From the IMG/VR virus record IMGVR_UViG_2693429536_000010: a stretch of 7,893 bases of DNA, one strand, 5' to 3'. Positions 1 to 7,893 of the stretch are shown here, piece after piece. Each line of letters opens with the position of its first letter. Positions within the stretch are counted from its first letter, which is position 1. Below the pieces are notes generated by a model that saw only the letters and a list, made by a program, of their open reading frames with translations, had not been told where the DNA came from and ran no database searches. The position numbers and the translations under genes were made by a program. Source of the DNA: a virus. Its lineage: Duplodnaviria > Heunggongvirae > Uroviricota > Caudoviricetes.

Positions 1-223
1 CACACTTCCAGCTTTCTGCATCCAGCCAGCGACCATGCCATTCAACCTGACGAGAGACGTCACCTAAGCAGGCCCATAGCTTCCTGTTTTGGTCTAAGCT
101 GCGGTTGCGTTCCTGAATGGTTACTACGATTGGTTTGGTTGGGTCTGGAAGGATTTGCTGTACTGCGTGAATAGCGTTTTGCTGATGTGCTGGAGATCGA
201 ATTTCAAAGGTTAGTTTTTTCAT
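1..223 (-). CDS. ninB: NinB recombination protein, partial (start codon at 221-223, runs off the window edge)
   Basis: Minus-strand translation from 223 reads MKKLTFEIRSPAHQQNAIHAVQQILPDPTKPIVVTIQERNRSLDQNRKLWACLGDVSRQVEWHGRWLDAESWKC, which I recognise as the lambda NinB N-terminus. Not in the ORF track because no stop codon lies in the window. Confidence 0.85.
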   Translation of the reverse strand, partial: MKKLTFEIRSPAHQQNAIHAVQQILPDPTKPIVVTIQERNRSLDQNRKLWACLGDVSRQVEWHGRWLDAESWKC

Positions 224-240
224 GACTTCCCTCTCCCCCA

Positions 241-271
241 AATAAAAAGGCCTGCGATTACCAGCAGGCCT
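241..271 (-). terminator. Rho-independent terminator between ren and ninB (lambda tR2 position)
   Basis: Perfect 8-bp inverted repeat AGGCCTGC (248-255) / GCAGGCCT (264-271) with an 8-nt loop, followed on the minus-strand transcript by UUUUUAUU (241-247). Lies just downstream of the ren stop. Confidence 0.7.
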
Positions 272-296
272 GTTATTAGCTCAGTGATGTAGATGG

Positions 297-587
297 TCAT
301 CTTTTAACTCCATATACCGCCAATACCCGTTTCATCGCGGCACTCTGGCGACACTCCTTAAAAATCAGGTTCGTGCTCATCTTTCCTTCCCGTTCTTCCC
401 TAGTAGCGAACCGGTAATACACCGTTCGCCAGACCTTACCTTCGATAACCAGAAGACCTGCCCGTGCCATTTTAGCCGCGGCCTGATTTATGCTGGTTAC
501 TGTTGCGCCTGTTAACGCGGCAACGTCCGGCGCACAGAAGCTATTATGCGTCCCCAGGTAATGAATAATTGCCTCTTTGCCCGTCAT
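297..587 (-). CDS. ren: Ren protein (96 aa)
   Basis: 96-aa ORF in the lambda position after P; start overlaps the P stop (ATGA-type overlap at 584-587). Sequence MTGKEAIIHYLGTHNSFCAPDVAALTG... recognised as lambda Ren. Confidence 0.9.
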   Translation of the reverse strand: MTGKEAIIHYLGTHNSFCAPDVAALTGATVTSINQAAAKMARAGLLVIEGKVWRTVYYRFATREEREGKMSTNLIFKECRQSAAMKRVLAVYGVKR

Positions 588-1285
588 ACACTTGCTCCTT
601 TCAGCCCAAACTTAGCTTTGATTTCTGCGATCTTCGCCAGAGCCTGTGCACGATTTAGAGGTCTACCGCCCATGACAGGAAGTTGTTTTACTGGTTCAGG
701 TATAGCCTCACCACGGTTAATTCGTGCGGTCATACAGGACAGTTCATCGGCAGCCTTGCGCCGTAATTCCGCATCAGTAAGCGCATTGGCCCGCATGTTC
801 TGATACAGGTTGGTAACCAGCCAGTAGTGCGCGTTTGATTTCCACGGATAAGACTCCGCATCCGGATACAGGCCTCGCTTCCGGCAATACTCGTAAACCA
901 TATCAACCAGCTCGCTGACGTTTGGCAGTCCGGCGATAACGGATGCTTCTTCCCGGCACCATGCAACAAACTGCCCGGGTGATGGCAGAAATGGTCGATT
1001 CTGCCGACGGGCTACGCGCATTCCTGCGTTAACCTGTTCCATTGTGGTGATCCCGTTTTCCCGGAAAGCCAGAACCCACTGGCGGCGGATTTCGTTCAGT
1101 TCGTTCTGGTCACGGTTAGCCAGGCTCGCCGGGAAAGTTGCCAGTAACTGGCTGAACACACCGTTGATGATCTGCGCTACCTGCTGTACCTGAGGCTTTT
1201 CGTCGTACTGTTCCGGCATGTTGTTGGCGATCCGACGCATCTGCTCACGGTCAAAGTTAACCATCTGTGCGGCGATGTTTTTCAT
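584..1285 (-). CDS. P: Replication protein P (DnaB helicase loader), 233 aa
   Basis: 233-aa ORF MKNIAAQMVNFDREQMRRIANNMPEQYDEKPQ... recognised as lambda P; overlaps the O stop by 4 nt as in lambda. Confidence 0.95.
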   Translation of the reverse strand: MKNIAAQMVNFDREQMRRIANNMPEQYDEKPQVQQVAQIINGVFSQLLATFPASLANRDQNELNEIRRQWVLAFRENGITTMEQVNAGMRVARRQNRPFLPSPGQFVAWCREEASVIAGLPNVSELVDMVYEYCRKRGLYPDAESYPWKSNAHYWLVTNLYQNMRANALTDAELRRKAADELSCMTARINRGEAIPEPVKQLPVMGGRPLNRAQALAKIAEIKAKFGLKGASV

Positions 1286-2181
1286 AAATCCACCCCGTAA
1301 ATCCAGTCTGTGTTTGTCAGGTCGAGTTTTGGTTTGCTGGCTGTCACGACTGCCTGTTGCTTGTTACGGTTGATTTCGAGCTGGGTCCACTTGTCGCGGA
1401 GTTTGGCCGGGCTCAGCACATTACCGGACCAGAAGTTGTCCTGGCAGGCCCAGCGGAACAGCACACACATATCGCGGTGGTTACGTCCGTCACGTTCACG
1501 CATCAGGCGGATATCGTTAGCCCACCCTGCAAAATTCGGTTTTCTGGCTGATGGCGCGATAGTCTTCACCATGTCAAACATCCACTCTGCGGCGGTCAGG
1601 TCTTCTGCTGTCCCCCATTTGCTGCCGCTCTGAATTGCAGCATCAGGTTTCACCACAGAAAGGTCGTTTTCTGGCTGGTCAGAGGATTCGCCAGAATTCT
1701 CTGACGAATAATCTTTTCTATTTTCTTTTGTATTAGTGTCTTTTGTGTTCCCCTGTTTTGAGGGATAGCAATCCCCCAATTTGAGGGATGTTTTATCCCT
1801 CGTTTTAGGGGATTTTCCCTCGTTTTGAGGGATACACCATTCTGAGATGTTTTTATTTGGTCCAAACATGCCGCCTTGCTGCTTGATAATATTCATTCTG
1901 ACGAGTTCTAACTTGGCTTCATTGCACCGTTTGACAGGTAACTTTGTAATCTCGCTAAGTTGAGAATCGGTGATTCTGTCCATTGGTTTATTCCACCCAT
2001 AGGTTTTACGCAGAATGGCAAGCAGCACTTTAAACTGTCGCTTGGTCAGATCTGCGCCTGAATAAGCCTCAAGCAGCATATTTGATAGTCTGGCGTAACC
2101 ATCATCGAGATCTGCCACATTACGCTCCTGTCCGGCAAAGTTACCTCTGCCGAAGTTGAGTATTTTTGCTGTATTTGTCAT
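1282..2181 (-). CDS. O: Replication initiator protein O, 299 aa
   Basis: 299-aa ORF MTNTAKILNFGRGNFAGQERNVADLDDGYARLSNMLLEAYSGADLTKRQFKVLLAILRKTYGWNKPMDRITDSQLSEITKLPVKRCNEAKLELV... recognised as lambda O; contains the ori iterons internally. Confidence 0.95.
   Translation of the reverse strand: MTNTAKILNFGRGNFAGQERNVADLDDGYARLSNMLLEAYSGADLTKRQFKVLLAILRKTYGWNKPMDRITDSQLSEITKLPVKRCNEAKLELVRMNIIKQQGGMFGPNKNISEWCIPQNEGKSPKTRDKTSLKLGDCYPSKQGNTKDTNTKENRKDYSSENSGESSDQPENDLSVVKPDAAIQSGSKWGTAEDLTAAEWMFDMVKTIAPSARKPNFAGWANDIRLMRERDGRNHRDMCVLFRWACQDNFWSGNVLSPAKLRDKWTQLEINRNKQQAVVTASKPKLDLTNTDWIYGVDL
1700..1748. other. AT-rich DNA-unwinding region of ori-lambda, adjacent to the iterons
   Basis: Sequence ctgacgaataatcttttctattttcttttgtattagtgtcttttgtgttc is strongly AT-rich and lies immediately next to the iterons on the side expected for O-strand orientation. 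Confidence 0.7.
1749..1833. repeat. ori-lambda iterons: four tandem ~17-bp O-binding repeats, each an internal palindrome
   Basis: Plus strand shows TCCCCTGTTTTGAGGGA (1749-1765), ATCCCCCAATTTGAGGGA (1771-1788), TCCCTCGTTTTAGGGGA (1796-1812) and TCCCTCGTTTTGAGGGA (1817-1833), spaced about 22-23 bp apart inside the O coding region. Confidence 0.9.
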
Positions 2182-2184
2182 AAT
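2156..2184 (+). promoter_or_regulatory. pO promoter for oop RNA
   Basis: TTGAGT (2156-2161), 17-bp spacer, CATAAT (2179-2184), placed 7 nt upstream of the oop 5' end at 2192. Overlaps the O start codon on the opposite strand. Confidence 0.6.
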
Positions 2185-2191
2185 GACTCCT

Positions 2192-2268
2192 GTTGATAGT
2201 TCCAGTAATAACCTCAGAATTCCATCTGGATTTGTTCAGAACGCTCGGTTGCCGCCGGGCGTTTTTTA
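2192..2268 (+). ncRNA. oop: oop antisense RNA (~77 nt), overlapping the cII 3' end
   Basis: GTTGATAGTTCCAGTAATAACCTCAGAATTCCATCTGGATTTGTTCAGAACGCTCGGTTGCCGCCGGGCGTTTTTTATT matches the lambda oop RNA as I recall it; ends in a GC-rich hairpin plus T6 tract (2262-2267). Confidence 0.8.
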
Positions 2269-2507
2269 TTGGTGAGAATCGAAGCAACTTGTCGTGCCAA
2301 TCGAGCCATGTCGTCGTCGACGACACCCCATTCAAGAACAGCAAGCAGCATTGAGAACTTTGGAATCCAATCCCTCTTCCACCTGCTGATCTGCGACTTA
2401 TCAACTCCCACAGCTTCCGCTGTCTTCTCAGTTCCAAGCATTGCGATTTTGTTAAGCAACGCACTCTCGATTCGTAGAGCCTCGTTGCGTTTGTTTGCAC
2501 GAACCAT
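2214..2507 (-). CDS. cII: Transcriptional activator CII (97 aa)
   Basis: MVRANKRNEALRIESALLNKIAMLGTEKTAEAVGVDKSQISRWKRDWIPKFSMLLAVLEWGVVDDDMARLARQVASILTNKKRPAATERSEQIQMEF recognised as lambda CII. Start chosen at the internal Met (CAT at 2505-2507); the ORF-track 5' extension to 2567 runs across pRE and has no support. Confidence 0.95.
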   Translation of the reverse strand: MVRANKRNEALRIESALLNKIAMLGTEKTAEAVGVDKSQISRWKRDWIPKFSMLLAVLEWGVVDDDMARLARQVASILTNKKRPAATERSEQIQMEF

Positions 2508-2520
2508 ATGTAAGTATTTC
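2485..2520 (+). promoter_or_regulatory. pRE promoter with CII-binding direct repeat TTGC-N6-TTGC
   Basis: TTGC (2485-2488) GTTTGT TTGC (2495-2498) flanks the -35 position; candidate -10 around TAAGTAT (2511-2517). Oriented toward cI, overlapping the cII start on the other strand, as in lambda. Confidence 0.8.
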
Positions 2521-2586
2521 CTTAGATAACAATTGATTGAATGTATGCAAATAAATGCATACACCATAGGTGTGGTTTATTTTGAT

Positions 2587-2618
2587 GCCCTTTTTCAGGG
2601 CTGGGATGTGTAAGAGCG
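2587..2618 (-). promoter_or_regulatory. nutR N-utilisation site (boxA + boxB)
   Basis: On the minus-strand transcript: boxA CGCTCTTA (revcomp of 2611-2618), then boxB hairpin GCCCTGAAAAAGGGC (revcomp of 2587-2601), located between cro and cII. The rho-dependent tR1 is expected just downstream (about 2510-2586) but cannot be defined from sequence. Confidence 0.85.
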
Positions 2619-2626
2619 GGAATGTC

Positions 2627-3967
<1,341 letters not shown>

Positions 3968-4017
3968 TCCCCACCTCAATCTCGATAACAAAAAAACAAA
4001 CTATTTTCCGTTTAAAA

Positions 4018-4085
4018 ACAATGGAGTTTGTTTTTCACGCCCCTTTTTACAATATTTCTTGTTTACAACATACAATCTTCCTTGT
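4018..4085. promoter_or_regulatory. Left operator OL3-OL2-OL1, 434 type
   Basis: Three 14-bp ACAA-N6-TTGT sites: ACAATGGAGTTTGT (4018-4031), ACAATATTTCTTGT (4049-4062), ACAATCTTCCTTGT (4072-4085). Confidence 0.8.
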
Positions 4086-4090
4086 AATTT
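4062..4090 (+). promoter_or_regulatory. pL promoter
   Basis: -35 TTTACA (4062-4067), 17-bp spacer, -10 TAATTT (4085-4090), overlapping OL1/OL2. The predicted start near 4097 gives a leader of about 222 nt to N, the same as I recall for lambda. Confidence 0.6.
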
Positions 4091-4130
4091 TAAGCCATCA
4101 GCAGGACGCACTGACCACCATTGAAGGTGA

Positions 4131-4161
4131 GGCTCTTAAAAATTAAGCCCTGAAGAAGGGC
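4131..4161 (+). promoter_or_regulatory. nutL N-utilisation site (boxA + boxB)
   Basis: boxA-like GGCTCTTAA (4131-4139; first base G where lambda has C, from memory) followed by boxB hairpin GCCCTGAAGAAGGGC (4147-4161). Confidence 0.85.
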
Positions 4162-4318
4162 AGCATTCAAAGCAGAAGGCTTTGGTGTGTGTGATACGAA
4201 ACGAAGCATTGGCCGGAAGTGCGAATCCGGATTAGCTGCCAATGTGCCATTGCGGGGTGTTTTCGTTCAGGACTACGACTCCCACACACAACCAAAGCTA
4301 ACTGACAGGAGAATCCAG

Positions 4319-4642
4319 ATGGATGCACAAACACGCCGCCGCGAACGTCGCGCAGAGAAACAGGCTCAATGGAAAGCAGCAAATCCCCTGTTGGTTGGGG
4401 TAAGCGCTAAACCAGTTAACCGCCCTATTCTCTCGCTGAATCGCAAACCGAAATCACGAGTAGAAAGCGCACTGAATCCGATAGACCTTACGGTGCTGGC
4501 TGAATACCACGAACAGATTGAAAGCAACCTGCAACGTATTGAGCGCAAGAATCATCGAGTTTGGTATAGCAAGCCAGGTGAGTTCGGTATAACTTGTCAA
4601 GGAAGACAAAAGGTTAAAGGGGAATCCATTCCATTGGCATGA
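4319..4642 (+). CDS. N: Antitermination protein N (107 aa), lambda type
   Basis: MDAQTRRRERRAEKQAQWKAANPLLVGVSAKPVNRPILSLNRKPKSRVESALNPIDLTVLAEYHEQIESNLQRIERKNHRVWYSKPGEFGITCQGRQKVKGESIPLA recognised as lambda N with an Arg-rich N-terminal motif. Start at the internal Met; the ORF-track extension to 4187 would cross nutL. Confidence 0.95.
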   Translation: MDAQTRRRERRAEKQAQWKAANPLLVGVSAKPVNRPILSLNRKPKSRVESALNPIDLTVLAEYHEQIESNLQRIERKNHRVWYSKPGEFGITCQGRQKVKGESIPLA

Positions 4643-4650
4643 GGTACGTA

Positions 4651-5520
4651 ATGAAGAAGATTGATTACAAGTCCATACCAAAACCAATAGACTCAGCATC
4701 AGAGCGAAAAAAACACAAAAAAGAGGCTGAAAAATTAGCAAATTATATCAGTTTTATTAGAAACAATGCTCACGGCGATGGCGACAAGAAGTTGCTTTCA
4801 GATGCTCGGACCCAAGCGTTCGGTATACTTCGTAAGCAGATGCAATATCGTCTTCATCCTGGCTACATAATTGAAATTCGCCCTACTGAAAGACAATTGT
4901 TCTTATTAAACTCTGTCTTTGACTTTGTAAACGTAGTTGGAGATCTTATCGACAGGTCTGTAGATAAGGATCCTGATACAAATAGTTTTCTTCTAACAAA
5001 TAAAGAATACTTATATGGTAAATTCGGTATAAACGGATGGCAAAAATATGTACGCTTCTTACGTGCATTCGTTGATGCGTATAAAAATTCCGACATGATT
5101 TATACATATTTGCCTGGTGGTGATAATTGTACGCTTTCGGCAGACAATAGAATATTCATACCTGTACTTGGTCTTGGGCTGATTAATGCAGTAAATGAAA
5201 AAGATGTTATAATTGTTAAGCAGTGGCGAAAATATGAGGGATATAGATATCTGCCATGCTTTGATATATTAAAAATACAGAATAAATTCTATGTAAAAAT
5301 TAAATATAAAGAAGATATTTTCTTCCTCAGAAAAAACAAAGATCTTTTACAAGAACTTTCTGGTACAATAGATGTCATCTTAGGTTCTAGGTTTATAAAA
5401 GAACTGAAAGAAAGCAGGTCTTTCTCTCGTGTAGAGATAAGCGAGTCAGAGTTATGGGGTATATCAAATAATCCTGTAAACCACGCTCACCAACGAAACC
5501 CAAACAAAAAGTGGTCATAA
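4651..5520 (+). CDS. Hypothetical protein (289 aa), AT-rich accessory gene in the lambda sieB-ral position
   Basis: Long ORF MKKIDYKSIPKPIDSASERKKHKKEAEKLANYISF... with a GAGG Shine-Dalgarno (4641-4644) 6 nt before the ATG at 4651. An alternative ATG at 4639 overlaps the N stop. Very Lys/Asn/Ile/Tyr-rich; spot counts of 60-bp lines give roughly 17-40% GC against about 50% in flanking phage genes. No known family recognised. Confidence 0.7.
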   Translation: MKKIDYKSIPKPIDSASERKKHKKEAEKLANYISFIRNNAHGDGDKKLLSDARTQAFGILRKQMQYRLHPGYIIEIRPTERQLFLLNSVFDFVNVVGDLIDRSVDKDPDTNSFLLTNKEYLYGKFGINGWQKYVRFLRAFVDAYKNSDMIYTYLPGGDNCTLSADNRIFIPVLGLGLINAVNEKDVIIVKQWRKYEGYRYLPCFDILKIQNKFYVKIKYKEDIFFLRKNKDLLQELSGTIDVILGSRFIKELKESRSFSRVEISESELWGISNNPVNHAHQRNPNKKWS

Positions 5521-5662
5521 CCCGCTCAGGCGGATTTCATTTTCACGCAAACAACAGAATAAACACAGCGCTGTGTATTCATTCCAACGAGTGAATACAC
5601 GGAGCAATGTCGCTCGTAACTAAACAGGAGCCGACTTGTTCTGATTATTGGAAATCTTCTTT

Positions 5663-5690
5663 GCCCTCCAAGATGAGGGCGATTTTTTAT
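5663..5690 (+). terminator. Rho-independent terminator downstream of the AT-rich gene, upstream of ea10
   Basis: GCCCTC (5663-5668), loop caagat, GAGGGC (5675-5680), followed by GATTTTTTAT (5681-5690). Confidence 0.65.
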
Positions 5691-5708
5691 CTGTGAGGAT
5701 ATGAACAG

Positions 5709-6077
5709 ATGTCAAACATCAAAAAATACATCATTGATTACGACTGGAAAGCATCAATAGAAATTGAAATCGACCATGACGTAATGACAGAGGAAAAACT
5801 TCACCAGATTAATAATTTCTGGTCAGACTCTGAATACCGACTCAATAAACACGGCTCTGTATTAAATGCTGTATTAATCATGCTGGCGCAACATGCTCTG
5901 CTTATAGCAATTTCAAGCGACTTAAATGCATATGGTGTTGTGTGTGAGTTCGACTGGAATGATGGAAATGGTCAGGAAGGATGGCCTCCAATGGATGGTA
6001 GTGAAGGAATAAGAATTACCGATATCGATACATCAGAAATATTTGATTCAGATGATATGACTATCAAGGCCGCCTGA
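5709..6077 (+). CDS. ea10: Ea10 protein (122 aa)
   Basis: 122-aa acidic ORF MSNIKKYIIDYDWKASIEIEIDHDVMTEEKLHQINNFWSDSEYRLNKHGS... in the lambda ea10 position; GAGGAT Shine-Dalgarno 8 nt upstream. The 72-bp gap to cIII matches the lambda spacing as I recall it. Confidence 0.8.
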   Translation: MSNIKKYIIDYDWKASIEIEIDHDVMTEEKLHQINNFWSDSEYRLNKHGSVLNAVLIMLAQHALLIAISSDLNAYGVVCEFDWNDGNGQEGWPPMDGSEGIRITDIDTSEIFDSDDMTIKAA

Positions 6078-6149
6078 GCGCGGCGTTACCGCATACCAAT
6101 TACGCTTCACTCGAGGCGTTTTTCGTTATGTATAAATAAGGAGCACACC

Positions 6150-6293
6150 ATGCAATATGCCATTGCAGGGTGGCCTGTTGCTGGCTGCCCTTCCGAATCT
6201 TTACTTGAACGAATCACCCGTAAATTACGTGACGGATGGAAACGCCTTATCGACATACTTAATCAGCCAGGAGTCCCAAAAAATGGATATTAA
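6150..6293 (+). CDS. cIII: CIII (FtsH inhibitor), 47-aa variant with altered, shortened C-terminus
   Basis: AAGGAG Shine-Dalgarno (6138-6143). [47 protein letters not shown] matches lambda CIII through ...PKNG, then ends 7 residues short of the 54-aa lambda protein. Below the ORF-track length cut-off. Confidence 0.8.
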
Positions 6294-6403
6294 TACTGAA
6301 ACTGAGATCAAGCAAAAGCATTCACTAACCCCCTTTCCTGTTTTCCTAATCAGCCCGGCATTTCGCGGGCGATATTTTCACAGCCATTTTCAGGAGTTCG
6401 GCC
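6283..6403 (+). pseudogene. gam: N-terminal extension of the long Gam form (GamL), out of frame with the gam body
   Basis: ATG at 6283 encodes [34 protein letters not shown], recognised as the GamL N-terminus, in frame 1. The rest of Gam (from 6404) is in frame 2. This segment is 121 nt where lambda has 120, consistent with +1 nt in the T4 run at 6387-6390. Confidence 0.6.
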
Positions 6404-6700
6404 ATGAACGCTTATTACATTCAGGATCGTCTTGAGGCTCAGAGCTGGGCGCGTCACTACCAGCAGATAGCCCGTGAAGAGAAAGAGGCAGAACTGGCAG
6501 ACGACATGGAAAAAGGCCTGCCCCAGCACCTGTTTGAATCGCTATGCATCGGTCATTTGCAACGCCACGGGGCCAGCAAAAAAGCCATTACCCGTGCGTT
6601 TGATGACGATGTTGAGTTTCAGGAGCGCATGGCAGAACACATCCGGTACATGGTTGAAACCATTGCTCACCATCAGGTTGATATTGATTCAGAGGTATAA
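6404..6700 (+). CDS. gam: Gam, RecBCD inhibitor, short form GamS (98 aa), intact
   Basis: [98 protein letters not shown] is near-identical to lambda Gam from its internal Met; GGAG upstream. Confidence 0.9.
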
Positions 6701-6705
6701 AACGG

Positions 6706-7491
6706 ATGAGTACAGCACTCGCAACGCTGGCAGGGAAGCTGGCTGAACGTGTCGGCATGGATTCTGTCGACCCACAGGAACTGATCACCACTCTTCGCCA
6801 GACGGCATTTAAAGGCGATGCCAGCGATGCGCAGTTCATCGCATTGTTGATCGTCGCCAACCAGTACGGCCTTAATCCGTGGACGAAAGAAATTTACGCC
6901 TTCCCTGATAAGCAGAACGGCATCGTTCCGGTGGTGGGCGTTGATGGCTGGTCCCGCATCATCAATGAAAACCAGCAGTTTGATGGCATGGACTTTGAGC
7001 AGGACAATGAATCCTGTACATGCCGGATTTACCGCAAGGACCGTAATCATCCGATCTGCGTTACCGAATGGATGGATGAATGCCGCCGCGAACCATTCAA
7101 AACCCGCGAAGGCAGAGAAATCACGGGGCCGTGGCAGTCGCATCCTAAACGGATGTTACGGCATAAAGCTATGATTCAGTGTGCCCGTCTGGCCTTCGGA
7201 TTTGCTGGTATCTATGACAAGGATGAAGCCGAGCGCATTGTCGAAAATACTGCATACACTGCAGAACGTCAGCCGGAACGCGACATCACTCCGGTTAACG
7301 ATGAAACCATGCAGGAGATTAACACTCTGCTGATCGCCCTGGATAAAACATGGGATGACGACTTATTGCCGCTCTGTTCCCAGATATTTCGCCGCGACAT
7401 TCGCGCATCGTCAGAACTGACACAGGCAGAAGCAATGAAAGCTCTTGGATTCCTGAAACAGAAAGCCTCTGAACAGAAGGTGGCTGTATGA
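6706..7491 (+). CDS. bet: Bet (Red-beta) single-strand annealing recombinase, 261 aa
   Basis: [100 protein letters not shown]... recognised as lambda Bet; starts 5 nt after the gam stop as in lambda. Confidence 0.95.
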
Positions 7492-7795
7492 CACCGGACA
7501 TTATCCTGCAGCGTACCGGAATCGACGTGAGAGCTGTCGAACAGGGGGATGATGCGTGGCACAAATTACGGCTCGGCGTCATCACCGCTTCAGAAGTTCA
7601 CAATGTGATAGCAAAACCCCGCTCCGGAAAGAAATGGCCTGACATGAAAATGTCCTACTTCCACACCCTGCTTGCCGAGGTTTGCACCGGTGTGGCTCCG
7701 GAAGTTAACGCTAAGGCGCTGGCCTGGGGAATACAGTACGAGAACGACGCCAGAGCCCTCTTTGAGTTCACTTCCGGCGTGAATGTTACTGAATC
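7488..7795 (+). pseudogene. exo: exo (lambda exonuclease / Red-alpha), truncated; only the N-terminal ~103 codons are lambda-like
   Basis: Start overlaps the bet stop (ATGA). Translation matches lambda Exo through ...[12 protein letters not shown] (codon 103), then diverges at nt 7796 into 23 unrelated codons ending at the stop at 7866-7868. Lambda Exo is about 226 aa. Confidence 0.8.

Positions 7796-7893
<98 letters not shown>

Follow-up and report, generated by a model that had tools for sequence, protein, structure and literature searches.

The kil gene of a 434-type lambdoid prophage in Escherichia coli has been abolished by the loss of exactly 98 bp between cIII and gam, relative to phage 434 and lambda. 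The best explanation, which we hold with high confidence, is a single direct-repeat deletion (hereafter Δ98) that produced a kil-null allele, trimmed only the end of CIII, spared GamS, and has been tolerated. The window analyzed here (7,893 nt) is the entire draft contig CYEP01000052.1 of E. coli assembly GCA_001284645.2, and its ORF map and database matches identify it as early-region DNA from a lambdoid prophage, in the orientation opposite to that of the lambda map (Table 1). Both cI and cro are genes of phage 434 (imm434), and the best match overall is phage 434 itself (OL657226), which is 99.5% identical across positions 1-7795. The ORFs of GamS, Bet, N, cI, cro, cII, O, P, and ren are all full length. 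The 289-aa ORF stands in place of the ral and sieB region of lambda; it is named "Nun C-terminal peptide-containing protein" in the phage 434 record and has no recorded Pfam match.

Table 1. Features of the prophage early region and of the deletion, with positions in the window
Feature	Position	Strand	Basis
ren, P, O, cII, cro		-	ORF map
cI, phage 434 type	2946-3578		ORF map
hex	3575-3967		ORF map
N	4319-4642		ORF map
nun-like ORF (289 aa), directly after N	4651-5520		ORF map
ea10	5709-6077		ORF map
cIII, shortened to 47 aa	6150-6293	+	ORF map; Pfam PF02061 (Lambda_CIII)
Former kil start: Shine-Dalgarno AGGAG (6269-6273), ATG (6283-6285)	6269-6285	+	Phage 434 annotation
Deletion junction, sole retained copy of AAAAAATGGAT	6278-6288	+	Alignment; pairwise differences; repeat search in phage 434
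kil remnant, codons K32-H47 plus stop, startless	6278-6328	+	434 kil translation against the window; alignment
50-aa ORF, N-terminal frame of GamL, out of frame with GamS	6283-6435	+	ORF map; gene called
T-to-C (6385) and run of four T (6387-6390; three T in 434 and lambda), GamL frame broken	6385-6390	+	Alignment
gam, GamS form (98 aa), intact; own Shine-Dalgarno AGGAG (6392-6396)	6404-6700	+	ORF map; Pfam PF06064 (Gam)
bet	6706-7491		ORF map
exo, first 103 codons	3' of bet, to ~7795		ORF map

A full pairwise comparison of positions 1-7268 with phage 434 revealed six differences in all, namely two SNPs, a 12-bp indel, the 98-bp gap, and one SNP together with a 1-bp insertion. Since the background is almost identical to phage 434, the gap represents a discrete local event, as the initial annotation had proposed when it read a deletion of roughly 100 bp from spacing, and not general divergence. 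When the window was aligned together with phage 434 and lambda, the interval from cIII to the GamL ATG contained one 98-bp gap, with nothing else altered. The lambda distance behind that proposal, 231 bp from the cIII start to the GamL start, agrees with the coordinates in NC_001416 (cIII, 33299-33463; kil, 33187-33330; gam, 32816-33232), versus 133 bp here (6150 to 6283). The spacers quoted in its support, 72 nt between ea10 and cIII and 5 nt between gam and bet, were also recovered on the ORF map.

Alignment placed an exact 11-bp direct repeat at both endpoints of the deletion. The sequence AAAAAATGGAT occurs twice in phage 434, with the two copies starting exactly 98 bp apart, and a repeat search ranked it as the longest among the exact direct repeats of the cIII-gam region of that phage. 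The left copy holds the kil ATG and lies inside cIII codons 44-47, and the right copy lies inside kil codons 32-35 and holds the GamL ATG. One 11-bp copy and the 87 bp between the copies have been lost, which corresponds to positions 30913-31010 of the 434 record if the left copy is counted as the lost one. In lambda, the left copy reads AAAGAATGGAT, so that exact homology there extends to only 7 bp. As 434 has both copies and the window has lost one of them along with the spacer, the event is, judged from its sequence, a deletion between short direct repeats. Slipped mispairing in replication is the usual cause of such deletions. Replication slippage or another short-homology, RecA-independent event probably generated Δ98; replication slippage, single-strand annealing, and a Red-mediated process are all compatible with the sequence.

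The Kil protein of phage 434 has 47 aa according to its translation, and codons 1-31 are deleted here. What is left is a 51-nt piece identical to the 3' part of 434 kil, and no 47-codon ORF that has a start codon and encodes the predicted helix-turn-helix core of Kil is present in the window. The initial annotation, which had described kil as removed, was right that the gene is abolished, but a startless remnant of 16 codons and the stop codon has survived. It has been reported that Kil tolerates removal of 5 residues from its N-terminus or of 11 from its C-terminus, while loss of both ends nearly abolishes activity and the helix-turn-helix core is essential (PMC11762379). Because the core is essential and only K32-H47 are left, the allele is regarded as Kil null.

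The deletion also rewrites the end of cIII. The product here ends in ...QPGVPKNGY, compared with the 54-aa CIII of phage 434, which ends in ...KNGSNNYGYPD; residues 1-46 are identical, residue 47 is changed from S to Y, and the stop codon that follows removes SNNYGYPD. Translation against phage 434 thus bears out the altered tail (PKNGY followed by a stop) that had been read from the sequence, as well as the position of the stop codon (6291-6293), 8 nt past the ATG at 6283. The 47-aa product still matches PF02061 and shares a 90% cluster with the 54-aa CIII; its NCBI name is "protease FtsH-inhibitory lysogeny factor CIII". The amphipathic region of CIII, residues 14-37, has been described as essential and sufficient (PMC1838920), and comparison with 434 shows this region to be intact in the 47-aa form. 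Given that residues 1-46 are unchanged and residues 14-37 suffice, the shortened CIII is expected to work and probably still inhibits FtsH.

On the other side of the junction, GamS is an intact 98-aa ORF with its own ribosome-binding site, and the phage 434 annotation likewise calls the 98-aa form of Gam. The kil Shine-Dalgarno sequence and ATG now head the GamL reading frame; in the phage 434 annotation, the kil ribosome-binding site is at positions 570-574 and the ATG at position 584 of locus L001. The ATG at 6283 had been taken as the GamL start, which is correct for its position, but it is the former start codon of kil, preceded by the ribosome-binding site of that gene, and it opens a frameshifted ORF of 50 aa. 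A 138-aa GamL in frame with GamS is not encoded, as the extra T ends the frame at 6435. The 50-aa ORF overlaps the GamS start by 32 nt, and the same protein is present on 17 contigs. The extra T is not tied to Δ98: the kil+ strain 19KM2326N (L016) matches this region of the window at 100%, and two other Δ98 loci (L005 and L014) are without the extra T and have an open GamL frame. The occurrence of the same 6385-6390 variant in the kil+ strain also indicates a lack of GamL conservation in this lineage. Plasmid-expressed Gam is active in either isoform (PMC5218532). We speculate that translation of the 50-aa ORF across the GamS start could alter Gam levels.

To search for the allele, a 43-nt junction query was designed such that no megablast match could be seeded by kil+ DNA. 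Megablast did not find the junction among 5,426 complete genomes of E. coli and 50,697 phage records, where the only two matches were 28-nt partial ones in kil+ genomes. It was also absent from the complete E. coli genomes in a search with word size 11 (E ≤ 1e-7), and exact-pattern scans found no occurrence of it in GTDB representative genomes, IMG/VR, or JGI metagenomes. The region 6130-6430 itself was matched in 3,390 of the 5,426 complete E. coli genomes, and all 40 of 40 examined among the matches listed keep the extra 98 bp, with kil annotated. These negative scans first suggested a unique event, an idea that was dropped when an exact-protein look-up found carriers among draft assemblies. 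The exact 47-aa CIII occurs in 26 blocks of a large assembly collection, from which 24 contigs were inspected, and is encoded on about 20 draft or metagenome contigs (20 in the cluster table), compared with at least 1000 contigs each for the wild-type 54-aa CIII and the 434 Kil. The junction is identical in 10 of 10 retrieved loci, which come from different submitters, projects, and assemblers (NCBI draft genomes, the Logan assembly of SRR1184224, and an ENA metagenome). The products of Δ98 are already present in NCBI nr under routine names, and no description of the natural allele was found in the literature searched. Δ98 is a rare natural variant of a well-known locus with three well-known proteins, and it belongs to a familiar class of mutation.

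The backgrounds of the carriers raise the question of whether the allele arose once. It is possible, though we regard it as doubtful, that the 11-bp repeat is a recurrent hotspot that yields Δ98 independently in different lambdoid phages. The identical junction is indeed found on differing backgrounds (L005, L006, L007, L013, and L014), in carriers integrated beside ybhC as well as beside icd. L005 shows four mismatches to phage 434 over 7 kb of flanks; L007 and L013 show seven mismatches in 8 kb and three mismatches in 3.5 kb, respectively, to the prophage of the kil+ strain 19KM2326N, and downstream of the junction the window, too, is of the 19KM2326N type. L006 shows yet another downstream mosaic and adjoins icd, and L005 and L007 adjoin ybhC, the lambda attachment region. 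However, L005-L013 share the same upstream 4 kb (the imm434 region), and one crossover downstream of the junction per lineage would explain them, so these loci could descend from a single origin via one downstream crossover. L014 (positions 252-819 of an ENA metagenome contig) has ral directly upstream of cIII, without ea10, and lambda-like SNPs in large number from +130. It may represent another lambdoid mosaic, but as a metagenome contig it could also be chimeric, which counts against it as evidence of recurrence; if genuine, it calls for either an independent event or the exchange of a patch of about 300 bp. As the nearest informative markers lie about 170 bp upstream and 115-130 bp downstream, patch recombination is compatible with these data as well.

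Other differences from phage 434 were observed outside the cIII-gam region. At position 3747, in hex, 12 bp (ATCAGTTTATGA) are absent in frame; this deletion is flanked by two copies of the 8-bp direct repeat ATCAGTTT and is the second small direct-repeat deletion in the same contig as Δ98. It is present in L006, L008, L010, and L011 and absent from L005, L007, and L012. The 434 oL2 operator (position 4058) reads ACAATATTTCTTGT in the window, whereas the laboratory phage 434 that was sequenced has ACAATATTTATTGT; wild prophages, including that of the kil+ strain 19KM2326N, share the C variant, and it may be the laboratory phage that is exceptional. SNPs relative to phage 434 are nearly absent before position 7269 and reach a density of about 4% after it (7269-7795, the end of bet and the start of exo), where the window and the 19KM2326N prophage share 99.8% identity. 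The shift resembles a boundary of mosaic recombination inside bet near 7269.

The window ends in a second lesion. After about codon 103, exo is cut by the left end of the IS21-family element IS100 (TGTCACGAACGGTGCAATAG...) from approximately position 7796; positions 7796-7893 are IS100 sequence, and the contig ends inside the element. The exo::IS100 junction had no match in GTDB representatives or JGI metagenomes. H108 (strain HCP5S3_I4) was considered as a relative in this respect and rejected, as it carries a different prophage with intact kil and with IS100 downstream of a complete exo. In the other carriers L005, L006, L007, L013, and L014, exo is full length (226 aa), and the first three also keep xis, int, and the host att junction. 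Therefore, the deletion predates, or is independent of, the IS100 lesion.

Whether kil loss was advantageous is a separate matter. The initial annotation regarded it as a plausible step in prophage domestication, noting that Kil is toxic on derepression. The toxicity is well documented, because kil+ defective lysogens filament and die when derepressed, and kil- phage gives normal yields with slightly earlier lysis, so that kil is dispensable for lytic growth (PMC3961180). It follows from the two observations that the loss is tolerated by the phage and may help the lysogen. The adaptive version of this idea holds that the prophage was already defective or trapped and that kil loss was selected because it removed the main lysis-independent killing on derepression. 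The effect of Kil on hosts of a derepressed defective prophage (PMC3961180) and the interruption of exo by IS100 at 7796 in this strain are in line with it, but the deletion is also present in prophages with full-length exo (and, in L005-L007, with xis, int, and the host junction), the remaining early region of the window is intact, and kil is dispensable for lytic growth in any case (PMC3961180). In addition, about 20 Δ98 contigs stand against at least 1000 wild-type ones, and kil is kept in thousands of prophages. We thus consider adaptive domestication unlikely: it is a conceivable reading of the deletion that falls short of a demonstration. The rarity of the allele suggests no strong or general selection for kil loss and, if anything, suggests that kil is normally maintained by selection; the reason for its maintenance is still unexplained in the literature (PMC3961180). 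Evasion of an FtsZ-sensing defence system was also considered as a reason for the loss and discarded, since lambda Kil is reported not to activate CapRel-Ebc (PMC13423816).

A bolder proposal, which appears quite improbable to us, is that the repeat acts as a built-in, recurrent, and irreversible off switch for kil, kept because lysogens escape Kil on transient derepression, with altered Gam isoforms as a consequence. If it were true, placing the strong kil ribosome-binding site before the GamL frame would change the output of Gam isoforms, giving full GamL in 434- or lambda-type backgrounds and the 50-aa peptide overlapping the GamS start here.

It is very unlikely that the junction is an artefact, either a collapse during sequencing or assembly or a deletion made in the laboratory. 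The window is a short draft contig, and the junction is missing from the complete genomes, phage records, GTDB representatives, IMG/VR, and JGI metagenomes, as such an artefact might predict. However, about 20 NCBI, ENA, and Logan contigs from different projects carry this junction together with the 47-aa CIII, the 11-bp repeat is shorter than assembler k-mers, and the junction contains neither a scar nor foreign sequence. The identity of the junction across projects and assemblers excludes an assembly artefact. An ancestral arrangement without kil, to which kil was added later in lambda and 434, has nothing in its favour beyond the bare lack of kil and was rejected as having a negligible probability, as it is contradicted by the 51-nt kil remnant identical to 434 kil, by flanks almost identical to those of kil+ phages, and by breakpoints that coincide with a direct repeat of the kil+ sequence.

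The preferred reading is thus a single direct-repeat deletion. A 434-type lambdoid prophage with the cIII-kil-gam order would have undergone one spontaneous deletion across the copies of AAAAAATGGAT, resulting in a kil-null allele from which the predicted helix-turn-helix core of Kil is gone. CIII would have lost its last eight, non-essential residues and probably kept FtsH inhibition, and GamS, Bet, and everything upstream in the pL operon would be unaffected. The kil ribosome-binding site would now drive the GamL frame, with the 50-aa peptide arising here via the separate +1 T. With kil dispensable for phage growth and harmful to the derepressed lysogen, the allele would be tolerated, perhaps mildly favoured in lysogens, and would persist at low frequency among E. 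coli prophages. Its value lies in being a precisely mapped natural kil-null allele of a textbook locus, which offers a natural test case for whether the CIII tail past residue 46 matters and whether kil loss helps lysogens. Otherwise, it is a routine small deletion.

Compared with phage 434 (OL657226), the order N, nun-like ORF, ea10, cIII, gam, bet, and exo is identical in the window. The window differs in being without the 98 bp and without kil, in having a CIII of 47 aa and an extra T in the GamL leader, and also in its 12-bp in-frame hex deletion, its denser SNPs from position 7269, and exo::IS100. With regard to mechanism, deletions between short direct repeats have been described for lacI and plasmid substrates. 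In those slipped-mispairing deletions, the parent has two exact copies and the product keeps one, and Δ98 is alike in both respects. The closest functional counterparts are the laboratory kil-null alleles of lambda, a start-codon mutant (CC4512) and cI857 kilΔ7, which lacks codons 20-26 (PMC3961180). Like Δ98, they are loss-of-function mutations in the 47-codon kil gene; they show no filamentation or killing on pL derepression, with normal phage yield (PMC3961180). By design, these laboratory alleles are non-polar and leave cIII and gam intact, whereas the natural Δ98 trims CIII and sets the kil ribosome-binding site before the GamL frame.
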